This document shows, in pieces, positions 7,200 to 24,069 of a DNA stretch of 24,069 bases (positions are counted from its first letter, which is position 1; each line of letters opens with the position of its first letter). The DNA is taken from the NCBI GenBank assembly GCA_044868695.1, contig JBIOWP010000099.1, forward strand, positions 1-24,069, given 5' to 3'. The DNA is from a bacterium (GTDB taxonomy: Bacteria; Sysuimicrobiota; Sysuimicrobiia; Sysuimicrobiales; Kaftiobacteriaceae). The position numbers were made by a program, and so were the translations under genes. The notes under the pieces were generated by a model. That model was not told the DNA's origin, did not search any database, and was given only the letters and a program-made list of their open reading frames with translations.

Positions 7200-7276
7200 C
7201 GGGGCGTGGCGCAGCGTGGTAGCGCGCGTGGTTTGGGACCACGAGGCCGCCGGTTCAAGTCCGGCCGCCCCGACCA
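7200..7276 (+). tRNA. tRNA-Pro (anticodon UGG)
   Basis: Full cloverleaf: acceptor CGGGGCG/CGCCCCG, D stem GCGC/GCGC, anticodon stem CGTGG/CCACG with loop TTTGGGA, T arm GCCGG-TTCAAGT-CCGGC, discriminator A and encoded CCA. Confidence 0.97.
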
Positions 7277-7912: not shown

Positions 7913-8039
7913 CGGATAACCTCTCCATCTCTGGTAGTTTGGCGCCCACGGACACCCCTCCTCCCGCCGGCCATGGCGGCGAGACCGGCGCCCCTCCCCC
8001 GTCGTCTTGGTCGAACAAGCAGGAAATGACCGGGAGGGG

Positions 8040-8045
8040 TATAAT
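8040..8045 (+). promoter_or_regulatory. Candidate -10 element upstream of ku
   Basis: Perfect TATAAT in a GC-rich intergenic region, 67 nt before the ku ATG; no convincing -35. Confidence 0.35.
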
Positions 8046-8112
8046 ACGCGTACATCCATTCGCCGAAAGCGGCCCGCGCGCCCGGCGTCGAGGGAATCGG
8101 AGGAATCGTCCC

Positions 8113-8955
8113 ATGCGTCCCATCTGGAAAGGTCACCTGACCTTCGGCCTGGTCACGATCCCGGTCAAACTGTACACCGCGACCGAGGGGAAAGACATCC
8201 GTTTCCGCCTTCTCCACCGCTCCTGCATGACACCTATCCAGAACAAACGCTACTGCCCCCATCACGAACAGATCGTGGACTGGAACGACGTGGTCCGAGG
8301 CTACGAATACGCGAAAGACAAGTTCGTTCCGGTCGCCGACGAGGAACTCGACAGCGTGCCGCTGGACACCGCGGGCACGGTCAACGTCACGTCCTTTGTC
8401 GAGCTGAGCGAGATCGACCCTCTCTATTATGAAAAGTCGTACTATCTCGCGCCAGACGAGGGAGGGCAGAAGGCGTACCGTCTCCTGCACGACACGATGG
8501 ACGAGACCACCAAAGTGGCCGTGGGCAAAGTCGTCATCAAAGAGAAGGAACACCTGGTGGCGGTGCGCCCCTTCGATGGGACGCTGGTCATGTCCACACT
8601 GTACTATGCGGACGAAGTCCGGCAGACGAGCGACATCCCCGAACTGCCCGTCCAGGCCAAAGTGCATCCCAATGAAAAGAAGATGGCGATGCAGTTGATC
8701 GAGGGCCTCGTCGCGGCGTTCAATCCCGCCGAATACCACGACGACTACCGGGAGGCGCTGCAGAAGGTCATCGCAGCGAAGGTGGATGGCGAGGCCGTGG
8801 TCGCCGTGCCGTCGCGCAAGCAGGAGAAGGTCGTGGATCTGATGGAAGCCCTGCGCCGCAGCCTGCAGGTCACGCGGAAGGAGAAGTCCCCGGTCTCCCG
8901 CCGGGCCCGCGTGTCGGCCCCGCGCGCGGCGGGCATGCGCGAGCGGCACCGCTAA
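8113..8955 (+). CDS. ku: Ku protein (bacterial non-homologous end joining)
   Basis: MRPIWKGHLTFGLVTIPVKLY, VVRGYEYAKDKFV, IDPLYYEKSYYLAP, AYRLL, YHDDYREAL, VVDLMEALRRSL and a basic tail. GGAGG precedes ATG 8113. Confidence 0.96.
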   Translation: MRPIWKGHLTFGLVTIPVKLYTATEGKDIRFRLLHRSCMTPIQNKRYCPHHEQIVDWNDVVRGYEYAKDKFVPVADEELDSVPLDTAGTVNVTSFVELSEIDPLYYEKSYYLAPDEGGQKAYRLLHDTMDETTKVAVGKVVIKEKEHLVAVRPFDGTLVMSTLYYADEVRQTSDIPELPVQAKVHPNEKKMAMQLIEGLVAAFNPAEYHDDYREALQKVIAAKVDGEAVVAVPSRKQEKVVDLMEALRRSLQVTRKEKSPVSRRARVSAPRAAGMRERHR

Positions 8956-8959
8956 CCGC

Positions 8960-9096
8960 AAACTACCGTTGGAACGTTGGAGCGTTGAAACGTTGAAGCG
9001 GCCAGAAACTACCGTTGGAACGTTAGACCGTTGAAACGTTGAAGCGACTGATCTATGTTGTTTTGACGTTCCAACGTTTCAACGCTTCAACGTAGT
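8960..9096. repeat. Intergenic octamer-periodic repeat element: two 41-bp direct repeats plus an inverted arm
   Basis: AAACTACCGTTGGAACGTTGGAGCGTTGAAACGTTGAAGCG at 8960-9000 recurs at 9006-9046 (39/41 identical). The unit is CGTTGRAR; 9067-9096 is a reverse-complement array of the same unit. Confidence 0.9.
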
Positions 9097-9097
9097 C

Positions 9098-9817
9098 ATG
9101 GCCCGCGCATACATCGGGACGTCCGGGTTCAGCTACCCTGAGTGGAAGGGAACCTTCTATCCGGCCGACCTGCCCAACGGCGAGATGCTGCGATTCTACG
9201 GGCAGGCGTTTGCCACCGTCGAAATCAACAACACCTTCTACCGGTACCCCGGTGAAGACACGCTGGCTCAGTGGGCGGCCGCCGTTCCCCCGGAGTTTCG
9301 CTTCGCGATCAAGGCGCACCGCCGGATCACCCACAACAAACGTCTCGCCGACGTCGACGGAGATTTAGCGTTTCTCTTTGAGCGGATCCGCCGTCTCGGC
9401 GACCGGCTCGGACCGATCCTGTTTCAGCTCCCACCGTCCCTACGCTGCGACCTGACGCTGCTGGAGTCGTTCCTTGCCGGCCTGCGGCCAGGGGGACAGG
9501 CCGTGCTTGAGTTCCGCCACGCCAGCTGGCGCCAGGACGCCGTGTACCGCCTGCTGGACACCCACCGTGTCGCGCTGTGCATCGCGGAGACCGACGAGGA
9601 AGCGCAGCCAGTCGAGGTCGTCGGGCCGGTCTCGTATCTGAGGCTGCACAAATCCCGTTATACGGACGAGGAGCTGCGCCGCTGGGCCGGATGGACCCGG
9701 GACCGTGAGGCGGAAGGCCGCAGCGTCTTCGCCTACTTTACGCACGAGGAGGGGGCGCCGGCAACGGACTACGCAAAAGAGCTCGCCGCGCTTACCGCTT
9801 CGGGACCTCGCTCATGA
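9098..9817 (+). CDS. DUF72 family protein
   Basis: YIGTSGFSYPEWKGTFYP, TVEINNTFYRYP, FRFAIKA, LGPILFQLPPS, LEFRHASW, YLRLH. Confidence 0.93.
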   Translation: MARAYIGTSGFSYPEWKGTFYPADLPNGEMLRFYGQAFATVEINNTFYRYPGEDTLAQWAAAVPPEFRFAIKAHRRITHNKRLADVDGDLAFLFERIRRLGDRLGPILFQLPPSLRCDLTLLESFLAGLRPGGQAVLEFRHASWRQDAVYRLLDTHRVALCIAETDEEAQPVEVVGPVSYLRLHKSRYTDEELRRWAGWTRDREAEGRSVFAYFTHEEGAPATDYAKELAALTASGPRS

Positions 9818-10178
9818 TCGCGAGGATGTTGTCTTCCGAATCGTAGAAAAAGGCCATCCACAGGTCATAGGTGTCCATCTCGGCGATGAGATGCGGCGCG
9901 TCGCGGAACTTCACGCCTCGCCCGGTCAGCCCGCGATGGGCCTCGGCAATGTCCGGGACACGGAAGTACAGCACTGAGCTCCGGCCGGATTGACCGGATC
10001 CTTCGGGGCGGCTCAGCATGAGCCGGACACCGGCGCAGTCGAAGAACGACAGCCCCGGCGGCGCGCTGAAGAGGTAGGCCATGCCGAGCCGGTCCCGGTA
10101 AAATGCCGTCGCGCGCTCGACATCCTTCACCGCGACGTGGATCTGGCCGATCTGCGACAGGCGGATCTCCTGCGTCAT
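9792..10178 (-). CDS. VOC (glyoxalase/bleomycin-resistance) family protein
   Basis: IGQIHVAVKDVERATAFYRDRLG, LSFFDCAGVRLML, WMAFFYDSEDNILAIMSE. GGAGG precedes ATG 10178. Confidence 0.9.
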   Translation of the reverse strand: MTQEIRLSQIGQIHVAVKDVERATAFYRDRLGMAYLFSAPPGLSFFDCAGVRLMLSRPEGSGQSGRSSVLYFRVPDIAEAHRGLTGRGVKFRDAPHLIAEMDTYDLWMAFFYDSEDNILAIMSEVPKR

Positions 10179-10271
10179 GGACGCCTCCGATCGCAACTCC
10201 CCGTGATGGCGGCTCGCGGGAGGGAAGCCGGCGTGCCGCGTGCTACTCTAGGATAACATCATGGCCCCATC

Positions 10272-13079
10272 ATGAGCCTGGAAGAGTACCAGCGAAAACG
10301 GCGATTCCCTCACACCCCGGAACCGCGCGGGCGCGGAACCCCGGCGCCCGCGGGGCGAGTCCAGGGGCTCCGTTTCGTCGTGCAGGAGCATCACGCCACA
10401 CGGCGGCACTGGGACTTCCGTCTCGAGATGGACGGGGTGTTGAAATCCTGGGCCGTCCCCAAGGGACCCACCTACGACCCCGACGAGAAGCGGCTCGCGG
10501 TCCCGGTCGAAGATCACCCGCTGGACTATGGGGAGTTTGAAGGCGTGATCCCGGAAGGCAATTACGGCGCCGGCCCGGTGATGGTCTGGGACACGGGTAC
10601 CTACGAGGTCCTGGAGGGCGATCCGGCGCAGGCATATGCCCGCGGAAAGCTGACCCTCATCCTCCACGGGACCAAGCTGCGCGGAGAGTTTCATCTTGTC
10701 CGGACCAAGATGGGCGGTGAAGTCCAGTGGCTGATGTTCAAGAAGCGCGATGACGACGCGGTGCCCGGGTGGACTTTGCCCGAGCCGTCCACCTCCGTCC
10801 GGACCGGCCGGACCATCGAGCAGATCCGGACCGAGGCCGGGGCGCAGTGGATCTCAGGACCCAAGGGAACGAGGAAACTAGGGAACAAGGGAACCAGAGA
10901 ACCAGGGAACACGCGAGAACAGGGTAAGACGGCAAAGAGGAGCGCCCTGGTTCCCTCGTTCCCTCGTTCCCCCGTTCCCGTATCCAAGCTCAGGCCGCTC
11001 AAGCTCGACCGACCCGGAAGCAATCCGCCTCTGCGGGACGTCAAACCGATGCTGGCCACGCTGGTGGACGCGCCCTTTGACGATCCGGCGTGGCTGTTTG
11101 AAATCAAATGGGACGGGGTGCGCGCCATCGCCTACATCCGCAGCGATGGCCCCAAGCGCGAGGTCACGCTGCGCAGCCGTGGAGGAATGACCCTCAACAC
11201 CCAGTTCCCGCAGATCGTGGACGCGCTGTATGCCGAGGGGCTCCCCAGCGCCGTTCTCGACGGAGAAATCGTCGCGCTGGACGACCGCGGCCGCGCGCAC
11301 TTCCAGCTGTTGCAGTCCCGCCTCCACGGAGACGGAACCGCGCCCGGACACGCGCCCATCATTGCCTACTACGTGTTCGACGTCTTGTACTTCAACGGCC
11401 ACCGGCTGGTCGACAGACCCCTGGTCGAACGCCGGAAGGTGCTGGAGGCGATCCTGCGCCCAGGCCGGGTCAGCCGCGTCTCAGAGGCCGTCCGGGGAGG
11501 CGGAATCTCCTTCTATCGCGCCGCCCAGGAGCTGGGGGTGGAGGGCATCGTGGCCAAGCGCGCCGACGCACCCTACCGGCCCGGCGAACGCGGGAAGACC
11601 TGGCTGAAGATCAAGGTGACTCAGCGGATGGAAGCCGTGGTGGGCGGTTTCACGCGGGGCCGGGGCGCGCGAGTGAAGACCTTCGGTGCGGTGCTGCTCG
11701 GCGTACACGATGAGCAGGGCCGCCTGCGCTACATCGGTCACTGTGGCGGCGGTTTCACCGATACTGAACTGCGGCGGCTGATGGCGCTGCTGCAGCCTCG
11801 CGTGGAAGCCGCGTGCCCGTTCTCTGAGGTCCCGCCGTCAAACGAGCAGGTCACCTGGGTCAGACCCGAGCTGGTCGTGGAAGTCGAGTACGCAGGCTGG
11901 ACGAACGACGGCCTCCTCCGCGTCCCGGTCTATCAGGGACTGCGGACCGACAAGCCGGCTCGCGAGGTGGTGCGGGAGGTCCCGCAGCCCGCAACACCAC
12001 CCCAGGAACCCCGCACGCCGGCCGTTCGTGCGCCTGGTCCAGACCGGTCCCTGGTCCCTGGTCCCCGGTCCCTGGCAGCCGATCCAATGACAGCAGTCGA
12101 GTTCACCAACCTCGACAAGGTGTTCTGGCCCGCCCAAGGGTACACGAAGGGCGATCTCATCCGCTACTATCTGGACGTCGCGCCTCACATCCTTCCTCAC
12201 CTGCGCGACCGGCCGGTAACGCTGCGCCGGTTTCCCAACGGCATCGCCGGCGAGAGTTTCTACCAGAAGGACTACCCGGATGCACCCGCGTTCGTTCACC
12301 TGGTCAGGATCTGGACGGAGAGCGAAAAGAAGATGATGGCCGCTCCGGTCTGCAACAACCTCAACACGCTGCTCTGGCTGGCACAGCTTGCCGACATCGA
12401 AATCCACACCTGGTTCAGCCGCATTACCCCGCTGCAGCGCCGTGAGGGAGGGCCGCGCGCGGGAACGGAGTTCGCGGCCTCCGCGGAGGCGCTCCGCGCG
12501 AGCGTCCTGAGCCGGCCGGACTACGTGGTGTTCGACATCGATCCTTATCTGTTCCCGGACAACAAACTGCCGCAGCGCAAGGGGGAGAAGGATCCTGACT
12601 ACTCGCGCCGGGGGTTCAATGCGGCGGCCGAGGCGGCGCTGCTCCTGCGCGACGTCTTGAAGAAACTGCGCCTGGACAGCTTCATCAAGACCTCCGGGAA
12701 GACGGGGCTGCACGTCTTTGTTCCGATCGCCCGGCGGTACATGTTCGACCAGGTGCATGCATTTGCGAAAACCGTCACGCAGTACCTGGAAGGACTTCAC
12801 CCCGCCAAGGTAACAACGGCGTGGGCGGCGGAGCAACGGGTGGGCAAGGTTTTCCTGGATTACAATCAGAACCGGCTGGGCGCCACGCTGGCCAGCGCCT
12901 ACAGTCTCCGGCCGACCCCCGACGCCACCGTGTCCCTACCGGTGTCGTGGCGGGACGTCGAGCGTGGGTTTGATCCGCTGGAGCACAACCTCCGGAGCGT
13001 CCCCCAGCTGATGCGCAAACGGAAGGATCCGTGGCGCGACCTGCTGGCGAAGTCGCAGTTGCTGGAGAAACATCTCTGA
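10272..13079 (+). CDS. ligD: DNA ligase D (phosphoesterase - ATP-dependent ligase - primase/polymerase domains)
   Basis: PE domain FVVQEHHATRRHWDFRLE...SWAVPKGP...EDHPLDY; ligase motif I FEIKWDGVRA, LDGEIV, YVFDVLY, EGIVAK, WLKIK; POL domain FTNLDKVFWP, RFPNGI, FDIDP, KTSGKTGLH, DYNQN, AYSLR. Confidence 0.97.
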   Translation: MSLEEYQRKRRFPHTPEPRGRGTPAPAGRVQGLRFVVQEHHATRRHWDFRLEMDGVLKSWAVPKGPTYDPDEKRLAVPVEDHPLDYGEFEGVIPEGNYGAGPVMVWDTGTYEVLEGDPAQAYARGKLTLILHGTKLRGEFHLVRTKMGGEVQWLMFKKRDDDAVPGWTLPEPSTSVRTGRTIEQIRTEAGAQWISGPKGTRKLGNKGTREPGNTREQGKTAKRSALVPSFPRSPVPVSKLRPLKLDRPGSNPPLRDVKPMLATLVDAPFDDPAWLFEIKWDGVRAIAYIRSDGPKREVTLRSRGGMTLNTQFPQIVDALYAEGLPSAVLDGEIVALDDRGRAHFQLLQSRLHGDGTAPGHAPIIAYYVFDVLYFNGHRLVDRPLVERRKVLEAILRPGRVSRVSEAVRGGGISFYRAAQELGVEGIVAKRADAPYRPGERGKTWLKIKVTQRMEAVVGGFTRGRGARVKTFGAVLLGVHDEQGRLRYIGHCGGGFTDTELRRLMALLQPRVEAACPFSEVPPSNEQVTWVRPELVVEVEYAGWTNDGLLRVPVYQGLRTDKPAREVVREVPQPATPPQEPRTPAVRAPGPDRSLVPGPRSLAADPMTAVEFTNLDKVFWPAQGYTKGDLIRYYLDVAPHILPHLRDRPVTLRRFPNGIAGESFYQKDYPDAPAFVHLVRIWTESEKKMMAAPVCNNLNTLLWLAQLADIEIHTWFSRITPLQRREGGPRAGTEFAASAEALRASVLSRPDYVVFDIDPYLFPDNKLPQRKGEKDPDYSRRGFNAAAEAALLLRDVLKKLRLDSFIKTSGKTGLHVFVPIARRYMFDQVHAFAKTVTQYLEGLHPAKVTTAWAAEQRVGKVFLDYNQNRLGATLASAYSLRPTPDATVSLPVSWRDVERGFDPLEHNLRSVPQLMRKRKDPWRDLLAKSQLLEKHL
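10863..10979. repeat. Octamer tandem array with inverted arm inside the ligD PE-ligase linker
   Basis: Six tandem units of consensus NAGGGAAC (10863-10910), followed by GTTCCCTC GTTCCCTC GTTCCCCC GTTCCC (10950-10979), the reverse complement of the same unit. Confidence 0.85.
12034..12071. repeat. Heptamer tandem repeat inside the ligD ligase-POL linker
   Basis: CCGGTCC CTGGTCC CTGGTCC CCGGTCC at 12044-12071, plus CTGGTCC at 12034-12040. Confidence 0.75.
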
Positions 13080-22151: not shown

Positions 22152-22167
22152 TGGCAGCAGTCTTGCT
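22152..22167 (+). promoter_or_regulatory. Candidate sigma54 (-24/-12) promoter upstream of the small CPxCG gene
   Basis: TGGCAGCAGTCTTGCT has exact GG-N10-GC spacing and one mismatch to TGGCAC-N5-TTGCW. Confidence 0.5.
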
Positions 22168-22276: not shown

Positions 22277-22468
22277 ATGGGTGTCTGGCGCTGTCCACAC
22301 TGCGGATCGGTGGTCACTCTGGAAGCTCGGTTCGGCGAGATCCTGGCAGTCTACGATCTGTGCGCGGTCGGGGGCGATGCCAGGGCCGGCCGCGGCCCTG
22401 TCCGGATGGAACCCCTCTCTCCCGAGGTGAACGCCCGCGAGCCGGAGCTGGCCGGCAGCCGGGCATAG
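22277..22468 (+). CDS. Small hypothetical protein (63 aa) with CPxCG motif
   Basis: Strong RBS GAGGGGAG before ATG 22277; MGVWRCPHCGSVVTLEARFGEILAVYDLC...; GC3-rich codons; followed by a terminator hairpin. Confidence 0.7.
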   Translation: MGVWRCPHCGSVVTLEARFGEILAVYDLCAVGGDARAGRGPVRMEPLSPEVNAREPELAGSRA

Positions 22469-22491: not shown

Positions 22492-22519
22492 ACGCGGGGC
22501 GGCAGATGCCGCCCCGCGT
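22492..22519. terminator. Probable bidirectional intrinsic terminator between convergent genes
   Basis: Perfect 13-bp inverted repeat ACGCGGGGCGGCA-GA-TGCCGCCCCGCGT; short T run on the + strand and GATTCTTTCT on the - strand. Confidence 0.75.
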
Positions 22520-22547: not shown

Positions 22548-23864
22548 TTAGCGGCGCGCTTTCACCGGAGGGGCGCTGGTAGGACCCGCGACGGAGCTCT
22601 CGGCCACCAGCGCCAGGAACTCGGCTGCGTCCGCATGCGCCCCGCGGTCCTTCAGGGCCAGCCCGAAGTCCCGCGCGATGTCGACAGCCTTCGTCTGCAT
22701 GCCCCGACCGCGGAAGGTGGCCAACGCTTGTCGTACGCCGTCAACGGCAGGCTTCACTTCACCACGAGCCAACCGGATGCGACTGAGCGCGACCTGCGCT
22801 TCCGCAGCCTCAACTGGATCGCCTGTCCGCTGTGTCTCACCCAGGGCCCTGGCAACGAAATGTTCAGCCTCCTCGAGTTCACCCAGCGTCAGGTGCACTC
22901 GGCCGATCTCAGTAAGGATCGAAGCACGGTCGCGCGGCCGCTGGAGTCGCTCAATCACGCGCAACGCGTGGTGGAAGTGGCGCAACGCCTCGTGAGTTCG
23001 CCCCTGCTCATGGTCCAGTTGCCCCAAATTGTGGAGTACCATCATCAGGTCAGGAAGCTCCTCGGCGGACTCAAATGAGTCGCGGGCGTGGAGCAGGTTC
23101 TCGCGGGAATCATCCAGCTTACCCAATTTCCGGTGGACCCACCCGAGACCCCAGAGCGCCCGGCCGCGCAGGACGGAGTCGTGGCGGGTCACCTCGGCCT
23201 CAACCGCCTCCTGATAACGCCTGAGGGCGGAGTCCAGTCGATCCACCCGGGTCAACGCCGTTCCCAGGAGAATGAGCGCCTGCACACGCGCCGGATCACG
23301 ACCGGCTTTGGCTCGCCGGAACACTACCAGGGCCGACTCCAACACGTCCGCGGCCTCCGGGTACGCCCGTTGACGCAGCCTCAGCCTGCCCTGCTGCACC
23401 ATGACGCGCCCCAACCGCCAGTAGTCTTTCTCACGCTCACATGCCGCCAGCGCCGCATCCAGGGCGGCCGACGCGTGAGCAAAATCATCCTTCTCGATCG
23501 CGACCTCCGCGGCTTGGAGCTGTACCTCCCGGCCTGCCTCGTCGACACGGAACTTCTCGGTGAGAAATTGGACAGTATCGAGGATCCTTGACGCGGTCGC
23601 ATAGTCACGCCGGCGTATCGCATCGCGGCTGATCGCAAGCAGACTTCCGGCAGCTGTCTCATGCACATGCCCGTCTTGCCCGAGGAGGGCGTCCACCGAT
23701 GCGTCCAGTTGACGCGCAAGAAACACGAGCGTCTCTACCGACGGTCTCGTCCGATCACGCTCCACCAGGCTGATGAAGCTTTTTGACAGCCTCCCGCCAC
23801 CAAGCTGCTGCTGGGTTAGTCCACGCGACTGGCGAAGCTGACGGATTCTCAAGCCGAGCGACAT
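22548..23864 (-). CDS. XRE-family HTH + tetratricopeptide-repeat transcriptional regulator (NprR/PlcR-like architecture, 438 aa)
   Basis: LGLRIRQLRQSRGLTQQQLGGGRLSKSFISLVERDRTRPSVETLVFLARQL (HTH_3 pattern) followed by multiple TPR-like helix pairs (ALWGLGWVHRKLG, VLHNLGQLDHEQG, ILTEIGRVHLTLG). GGAGGGGG precedes ATG 23864. Confidence 0.9.
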   Translation of the reverse strand: MSLGLRIRQLRQSRGLTQQQLGGGRLSKSFISLVERDRTRPSVETLVFLARQLDASVDALLGQDGHVHETAAGSLLAISRDAIRRRDYATASRILDTVQFLTEKFRVDEAGREVQLQAAEVAIEKDDFAHASAALDAALAACEREKDYWRLGRVMVQQGRLRLRQRAYPEAADVLESALVVFRRAKAGRDPARVQALILLGTALTRVDRLDSALRRYQEAVEAEVTRHDSVLRGRALWGLGWVHRKLGKLDDSRENLLHARDSFESAEELPDLMMVLHNLGQLDHEQGRTHEALRHFHHALRVIERLQRPRDRASILTEIGRVHLTLGELEEAEHFVARALGETQRTGDPVEAAEAQVALSRIRLARGEVKPAVDGVRQALATFRGRGMQTKAVDIARDFGLALKDRGAHADAAEFLALVAESSVAGPTSAPPVKARR

Positions 23865-23922
23865 CGACGAAGCCCCCTCCGGTTGCGAGTGCCTAGACGA
23901 CTCTGCCTCATCAAACGAGGCA

Positions 23923-23959
23923 AGCATACCAAAACTTACCGATAGCAAGCAAGGTGCCA
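23923..23959 (-). promoter_or_regulatory. Promoter region of the HTH-TPR regulator (overlapping sigma54-like and sigma70-like motifs)
   Basis: Minus strand TGGCACCTTGCTTGCT (23959-23944) matches TGGCAC-N5-TTGCT. It overlaps TTGCTT (23952-23947)-N18-TATGCT (23928-23923) with an extended -10 TG. Confidence 0.55.
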
Positions 23960-23989
23960 GGGCGCGGGAGCGTGGCACCCGTACGGCTC

Positions 23990-24069
23990 CTAGCCCCCGT
24001 CAGGACCGATGTCCCCTGCCAACTGGAAGACGGCGGGTAGAGCCCCTCCGTCTGGTCCGATATCGCCTG
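23990..24069 (-). CDS. 3' end of a small ORF (5'-truncated by window edge) encoding duplicated GDIGPDGG; candidate signalling propeptide
   Basis: Frame from 24067 reads GDIGPDGG-ALPAVFQLA-GDIGPDGG-stop (TAG 23992-23990). The two copies differ at 6 of 8 codons, all synonymous third positions. Confidence 0.75.
   Translation of the reverse strand, partial: GDIGPDGGALPAVFQLAGDIGPDGG

Follow-up and report, generated by a model that had tools for sequence, protein, structure and literature searches.

To our knowledge, RRNPP peptide signaling has been described as a trait of Bacillota. In the available text of PMC10075063, RRNPP(A) systems share a five-part signature: a propeptide of 10–100 a.a., a Sec signal, a receptor of 250–500 a.a., TPRs, and receptor and propeptide genes that are direct neighbors. 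In the NprR–NprX pair of the Bacillus cereus group, an HTH domain and a Rap-like TPR domain are combined in the receptor, and the Sec propeptide of 40–50 a.a. carries a Gly/Asp/Pro-containing core of 7–9 a.a. (PMC4147580). Both nprX and the phr genes of the Rap–Phr systems have sigma-H promoters, according to the same source. The Phr cores are 5–6 a.a. long, with Arg2 bound by Asp194 and with Asn227 of RapF anchoring the peptide backbone (PMC3601957), and duplicated pheromones, with tandem cores in one propeptide, are described for phi3T and phi105 (PMC11343458). Tandem pheromone copies have been published for Rap, AimR, NprR and PlcR propeptides (PMC11343458, PMC9765709), and in PlcRa–PapRa, papRa is located upstream of plcRa (PMC4147580). 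The AloR–AloP systems of Paenibacillus, which we compared by description only, include HTH-TPR receptors, several pairs per genome with some receptors lacking a peptide, Gly-rich cores, and aloP downstream of the receptor gene (PMC7425212).

The window analyzed here, a stretch of 24,069 nucleotides, is the entire contig C99 of the host genome (G000) and terminates at 24069 inside an ORF, which is therefore incomplete. From 24067, the minus strand translates as GDIGPDGG-ALPAVFQLA-GDIGPDGG-stop, with a period of 17 a.a. This 3′ half of a putative propeptide ORF (23990..24069, minus strand, as are all features of the pair) consists of core copy 1 (24044..24067), directly preceded by a predicted signal-peptidase cut after Ala, a 9-a.a. 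spacer ending in Q-L-A (24017..24043) with a predicted second cleavage site, and core copy 2 (23993..24016), which is C-terminal and abuts the stop codon. Six of the eight codons are unlike between the two copies, and every change is synonymous. Translation and codon comparison thus confirmed the repeat reported in the initial annotation, and so did the coordinates its claim that the ORF ends shortly before a co-oriented XRE-HTH/TPR gene: 125 nt separate the end of the stop codon, at 23990, from the receptor ATG, at 23864. A six-frame comparison of G000 covered 72,647 stop-terminal 8-mers, and this is the sole one with an exact copy at most 40 a.a. upstream; the duplication did not arise by chance. 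A propeptide HMM matched G000 at a single place, the window tip (E 9e-8). The propeptide gene is real and selected.

Full-length homologues are available in databases, where a profile built from 16 propeptides matched 54 proteins (57 database propeptides when three cluster members are added). Five of these matches or cluster members (P0147, P0169–P0171 and P0140) carry two GDIGPDGG cores within a 50-a.a. protein, and P0169 shows one mismatch to the 25 residues of the window. The N-terminus of the homologues comprises 25 a.a., basic and then hydrophobic, ending in V-Q-V-A; these proteins support the earlier suggestion of an Ala before copy 1 and imply that about 25 signal-peptide codons are absent from the window. 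Across the 57 database propeptides, Ala occupies position −1 in 112 of 117 cores and Gln position −3 in 55 of 117, and the first seven residues are the same in the first and last core in 50; the first core begins after residue 25 in 37 of 50. A hydropathy rule was used to call signal peptides. By this rule, the short ORF with a ribosome-binding site and a signal peptide that had been expected is present in relatives, with a length of 40–135 a.a. (median 48) over 60 called loci. No family in Pfam or NCBIfam matched the propeptides.

The arrangement of repeated cores behind a recognition stretch that ends in Ala resembles multi-core RiPP precursors, and one NCBIfam RiPP TPR model matched far under its cut-off (43.6 versus 1125 bits). 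A multi-core RiPP precursor, whose Gly/Asp/Pro cores would be modified (e.g., cyclized) by enzymes encoded elsewhere, is nevertheless highly improbable: the leader is Sec-type, unlike a RiPP leader, and the Pfam matches of 58 ORFs at nine loci, with flanks of up to 4 kb (the upstream side of the window is missing), include no maturase family. The adjacent modifying enzymes that would have favored this alternative in the initial annotation were thus not found there. The neighbors vary, the common ones at the nine loci being an aldo-keto reductase upstream and a quinone-oxidoreductase-type dehydrogenase downstream, and the HTH-TPR gene is the sole constant partner.

This partner (22548..23864) encodes a 438-a.a. 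receptor candidate with HTH_3 and TPR_12 domains (E 2.9e-37 for TPR_12), an NprR-like architecture on a predicted Rap-like TPR superhelix. Its ribosome-binding site is at 23873..23880. Longer starts (GTG at 23978; the 459-a.a. P0172) were discarded because they run into the promoter elements and the start in relatives corresponds to 23864. The structural model is all-helical (pLDDT 91.5), and the six highest-ranking structural matches to it are Rap proteins with bound peptide (Z 33.3–34.2, rmsd 3.5–3.9, 346–357 residues aligned), with NprR at ranks 9 (apo, Z 30.5) and 15 (with NprX, Z 29.0) and AimR at Z 24.5. The predicted fold is thus closest to Rap and NprR, in agreement with the RRNPP-type receptor proposed from the start, with some unrelated TPR proteins within 3–5 Z units (APPBP2, Z 31.4; MalT, 29.1). 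Foldseek placed LGN first by E-value and gave the highest TM-scores to Rap, up to 0.66. Sequence identity to Rap and NprR is 12–15%; NprR was not among the PDB sequence matches listed, and PlcR was matched by its HTH alone and was not within the best 50 structural matches.

Compared with the RRNPP(A) signature, four of the five features are found here: a propeptide of 50 a.a. in the closest full-length homologues, a receptor of 438 a.a., TPRs, and genes 125 nt apart, the junction of the window allele being unconfirmed in the sequencing runs described below. As to the Sec signal, the N-terminus is missing from the window, and the homologues have the basic and hydrophobic stretches with Ala at −1 called by the hydropathy rule. 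The pair is like NprR–NprX in its HTH and Rap-like TPR domains of similar size and in the propeptide and core described above, and unlike it in the upstream peptide gene, the two identical cores (one C-terminal), a sigma-54 box before the receptor, and a host outside Bacillota with Omp85 present and no Spo0A found. With Rap–Phr, the source of the best structural matches, it shares tandem cores and apparently an anchoring Asn in register, whereas Rap has a three-helix bundle and binds proteins and the window receptor has an XRE HTH; in place of the Arg2–Asp194 contact of Phr, an acidic core residue 2 appears to face Arg245. With PlcRa–PapRa and PlcR–PapR, it shares an HTH-TPR regulator and, with the former, the gene order. 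AloP13 (SHGRGG) resembles the GHGG cores of a paralogous clade (PMC7425212). Membership in three subfamilies was considered and rejected: NprR, by 14–15% identity and the upstream, not downstream, peptide gene; Rap, which has the three-helix bundle and no HTH; and PlcR, from which the receptor is set apart by the ~290 a.a. of PlcR and the HTH-only match. The initial annotation had emphasized a multi-copy, propeptide-first pair; both features were seen, but neither is new, since both are known in Bacillota (PMC11343458, PMC9765709; PMC4147580).

Receptor matches at E ≤ 1e-20 were obtained in 46 of 61 genomes and in all sampled families save f4 (0/12) and f2 (0/1). Among the 105 matches collected, 99 were intact at the N-terminus with 400 nt or more of upstream sequence, and an upstream ORF with a ribosome-binding site and a signal-like start was called at 60 of these 99 loci, or 59 once L056, a membrane protein on inspection by eye, was dropped. 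The same rule called 22 of 556 background genes in G000, one being a true paralogous pair on C53. The remaining 39 loci, including whole clades and L036, lack a propeptide call. L028, from an unpublished genome (G033), is counted in the locus, promoter and arm tallies, and no conclusion hangs on it. In 24 metagenome loci, a propeptide was found in 16 and none in six (51% identity), with upstream DNA missing in two.

In a tree of 103 receptors, the window protein falls within a 26-member clade (SH-aLRT 99), of which 22 have an upstream propeptide, with two copies in 18 and one copy in four. All 18 two-copy propeptides have identical cores with 1–8 synonymous codon differences. The members without a call are the window, L034 (contig end), L032 and L036. 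In L032 (G013:C12), a propeptide remnant 170–400 nt before the receptor has lost the stretch with the ribosome-binding site and start relative to L016 but kept the core and a sigma-H-like motif; it is possibly a non-signaling allele. Core type varies by receptor clade (GDxxP, GHG(G/D)xELL, GDDNGP and DGxxGGG), as does the copy number, from one to five; in other families of the phylum (L057, L058, L074–L079 and L023), the precursors carry three to five core copies, longer or of other sequence, and in some the last unit diverges. The earlier expectation that adjacent secreted ORFs co-vary with the receptor thus held for the adjacency and for the change of core from clade to clade; within the clade, the correlation between core and receptor identity is weak (Spearman 0.23–0.29), and the TPR part does no better than the HTH.

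Two further receptor genes occur in G000. The locus L098 on contig C53 (804–932 and 944–2287) is a second propeptide–receptor pair with a 43-a.a. precursor ending in a single C-terminal GHGGGELL; a sigma-H-like motif lies upstream, and rpoN with a sigma-54/pilin cluster about 8.5 kb away. The third paralogue (L105, C14, 874–2199) has no upstream propeptide and belongs to a propeptide-less clade that is conserved across family f1 and lacks the residues W238, R245 and N279 discussed below; this paralogue is possibly an orphan receptor or has a different ligand.

The residues of the predicted groove bear on whether the exported peptide is the ligand. Receptor residues 262–355 aligned with RapF 209–303, which places N279 at most one residue from RapF N227 by the alignment ranges. 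An Asn at this groove position is common across TPR proteins generally. All 23 clade receptors compared carry W238, R245 and N279, and none of 16 receptors from a clade lacking any credible propeptide has them. Position 245 is Arg with GD cores (23/23) and Glu with GH cores (12/12), and position 279 is Ser in the 12 GH-core receptors; at position 275, 16 of the 23 clade receptors have Arg and the window receptor has Met. Since the spacing of R245 ahead of N279 (34 residues) is close to that of D194 ahead of N227 in RapF (33), we infer a charge-reversed contact to core residue 2. If the exported peptide were not the ligand of the regulator, it might be sensed by a membrane histidine kinase or be a regulated product, with the HTH-TPR protein sensing something else. 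The many family members without a propeptide and the weak fine-scale covariation would fit this explanation, as would the likely outer membrane of the host (Omp85), which would complicate peptide release and re-entry. We regard it as unlikely, because the groove residues are kept with propeptides and lost without them, the charge swap matches core residue 2, no kinase is a conserved neighbor of the close loci, and the adjacency holds across unrelated neighborhoods. Taken together, the propeptide and the HTH-TPR protein most probably form a cognate RRNPP-like pheromone–receptor pair, as judged from sequence comparison and structural modeling.

The family-level reading is independent of the contig tip, on which the exact pairing of core and receptor depends. 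We compared four soil sequencing runs (X1, X4, X5 and X6) over 23400–24069, none of which covers 23969–24069. X1, X4 and X5, from two studies, agree with the window at every letter as far as 23968, beyond which they share a different 30-nt continuation; its minus strand has a TAG and then a hairpin arm similar to that of L002 and L003. The loose ends of X6 beyond 23968 are mutually discordant. The divergence of X1, X4 and X5 indicates that strains with the window receptor carry a different segment there, and the window tail represents a further allele or, alternatively, a contig tip that derives from a sister organism. In the latter case, the system would be real and the RRNPP-like reading would still apply at the family level, but the last 101 nt would have been joined from a sister strain or species at a conserved promoter stretch, and the receptor's own propeptide allele would differ. 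Short contigs of other organisms that match 23915–23968 alone, and the contig end just 101 nt beyond the junction, agree with such a joining. It is a lesser possibility in our judgment, as the window tail has a plausible arm and hairpin of its own and its peptide fits the tree place of the receptor beside GDIGPGS carriers. Moreover, contigs drop rare variants, the source sample of the window is perhaps not among the compared runs, and the other allele is visible for 30 letters only, none of them coding. A single-protein scan of genome contigs for an extension of the contig found nothing, alignment scans gave relatives only (51–74%), and neither the other allele nor a second copy was found on other G000 contigs. 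The upstream neighbors of orthologues lie mid-contig elsewhere in G000.

The propeptide genes share promoter-like and flanking elements. AGGA-n17/18-GAA, which we take to resemble the sigma-H consensus, occurs in the 150 nt upstream of 42 of 59 propeptide genes, against a resampled mean of 1.0 (maximum 5 in 500 rounds), 48 of 1073 G000 genes and 8 of 102 receptor upstream regions; these and the following contrasts are descriptive, because the motifs were spotted in the same sequences in which they were later counted and the genomes are kin. The window's own copy would lie beyond the contig end. sigH was over the cut-off in G000 and in 38 of 41 genomes of the phylum. Leader and trailer contain a perfect complement of 9–15 nt in 27 of 59 propeptide genes, versus 2.9% with shuffled trailers; within the 26-member clade, the mean complement is 10 for cognate and 7.3 for non-cognate arms, and the arm sequence differs between clades. 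In 16 of 18 loci with both elements, the leader arm begins 8–14 nt past GAA, and the arms pair at a probability of at least 0.95 in eight of eight folded examples. The leader arm thus sits where a transcript would begin; an RNA 5′–3′ end helix is the likelier reading of the arms, and inverted operators the less likely one. Counts of G-U versus A-C, compared to tell RNA from DNA, did not discriminate between the two (14 versus 18). The 3′ arm of the window (23960..23970), whose 5′ partner would be beyond the contig end, spans the 23968 divergence point. The trailer hairpin of the window is no more stable than its shuffled versions (z −1.19). Complements of 14–15 nt flank the ORFs of L091, L096, L097, L099 and L103, where the sigma-H-like motif is absent and another promoter type may operate.

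Before the receptor gene, a candidate sigma-54-type −24/−12 box (23944..23959) lies 79 nt from the ATG and is a perfect match to what we take to be the sigma-54 consensus. Such boxes number 14 in G000; among the receptor genes, they precede 10 of the 28 close ones and none of the 76 others. Six of the G000 matches are on C53 around rpoN, which is over the cut-off, including one ahead of a pilin-type gene, and another match precedes a PilT-like gene (named by eye). The box suggests co-expression of the receptor with pilin and other sigma-54 genes. An extended −10-like element (23923..23931) marks a second, overlapping promoter candidate of the housekeeping type; this −35/−10-like pattern is seen in five of the six closest loci and was missed by a consensus scanner. 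A terminator-like hairpin past the receptor gene (22492..22519) is weak evidence alone (one found versus a shuffle mean of 0.8). We looked for a receptor operator or target genes, and none were identified.

In the circuit that we propose for this pair, sigma-H would transcribe the propeptide gene on slowing growth, giving a short mRNA with paired 5′ and 3′ ends. Following Sec export, signal peptidase would cut after Ala25 and free the N-terminus of core 1, and an extracellular or periplasmic protease would cut after the Q-x-A of the spacer and trim core 1, yielding up to two GDIGPDGG peptides per precursor. The identical copies most likely raise the signal dose per precursor, not its diversity. 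An Opp-type permease would re-import the peptide; 31 SBP_bac_5 (Opp-type binding protein) matches over the cut-off in G000 show the presence of such permeases only. Inside the cell, GDIGPDGG may occupy the groove of the TPR domain, where N279 would hold the peptide backbone and R245 would pair with Asp2, and thereby switch DNA binding by the HTH domain.

The host, which probably belongs to CSP1-3/Sysuimicrobiota, likely has an outer membrane, and Spo0A was not over the cut-off in G000 (95% complete). A receptor 66% identical to that of the window was found in Armatimonadetes bacterium 13_1_40CM_64_14, whose name matches a deep-soil CSP1-3 family in the available text of PMC11962464. Look-alike clusters are labeled Armatimonadota and Sysuimicrobiota, as well as Chloroflexota, Actinomycetota and Dormiibacterota; a plasmid search gave two generic TPR matches. 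Tentatively, these data might represent a phylum-wide RRNPP branch in a probably diderm, non-sporulating deep-soil lineage, with sigma-H pheromone mRNAs closed by an end helix, several identical signals per precursor, a charge-reversed pocket and a link to a sigma-54 pilus regulon. Such a branch would place the sigma-H/propeptide/TPR circuit before or outside Bacillota, uncoupled from sporulation, and the sigma-H link without a detected Spo0A bears on the origin of that circuit. In mostly open literature, the supplements of two RRNPP surveys aside, no report of RRNPP systems from this phylum, or from candidate phyla, came to light, and "quorum" is absent from the available text of PMC11962464 and PMC11604079; neither the lineage nor the regulatory layout was found in print. 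The receptor–propeptide pairs occur in most families of an uncultured phylum that is abundant and inhabits soil and hot springs, and their approximately 60 readable peptide codes are a test set for receptor specificity and for the retention of identical pheromone copies. All components are small, and culturing the source organism would not be needed to test them in vitro or in a laboratory host.

Other genes of the window were also noted. Convergent with the receptor gene, a 63-a.a. ORF on the plus strand (22277–22468), with a CxxC at its start, a ribosome-binding site and no Pfam match, is conserved in eight of eight aligned downstream regions. A near-sigma-54 box (22152–22167, plus strand) and further invariant blocks lie upstream of it, in a region shared with a divergent dehydrogenase gene. 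Elsewhere, 7939–13079 contains Ku-like, DUF72-like and 935-a.a. LigD-like genes, a non-homologous end joining set named by eye, and a tRNA-Pro gene is located at 7200–7276.
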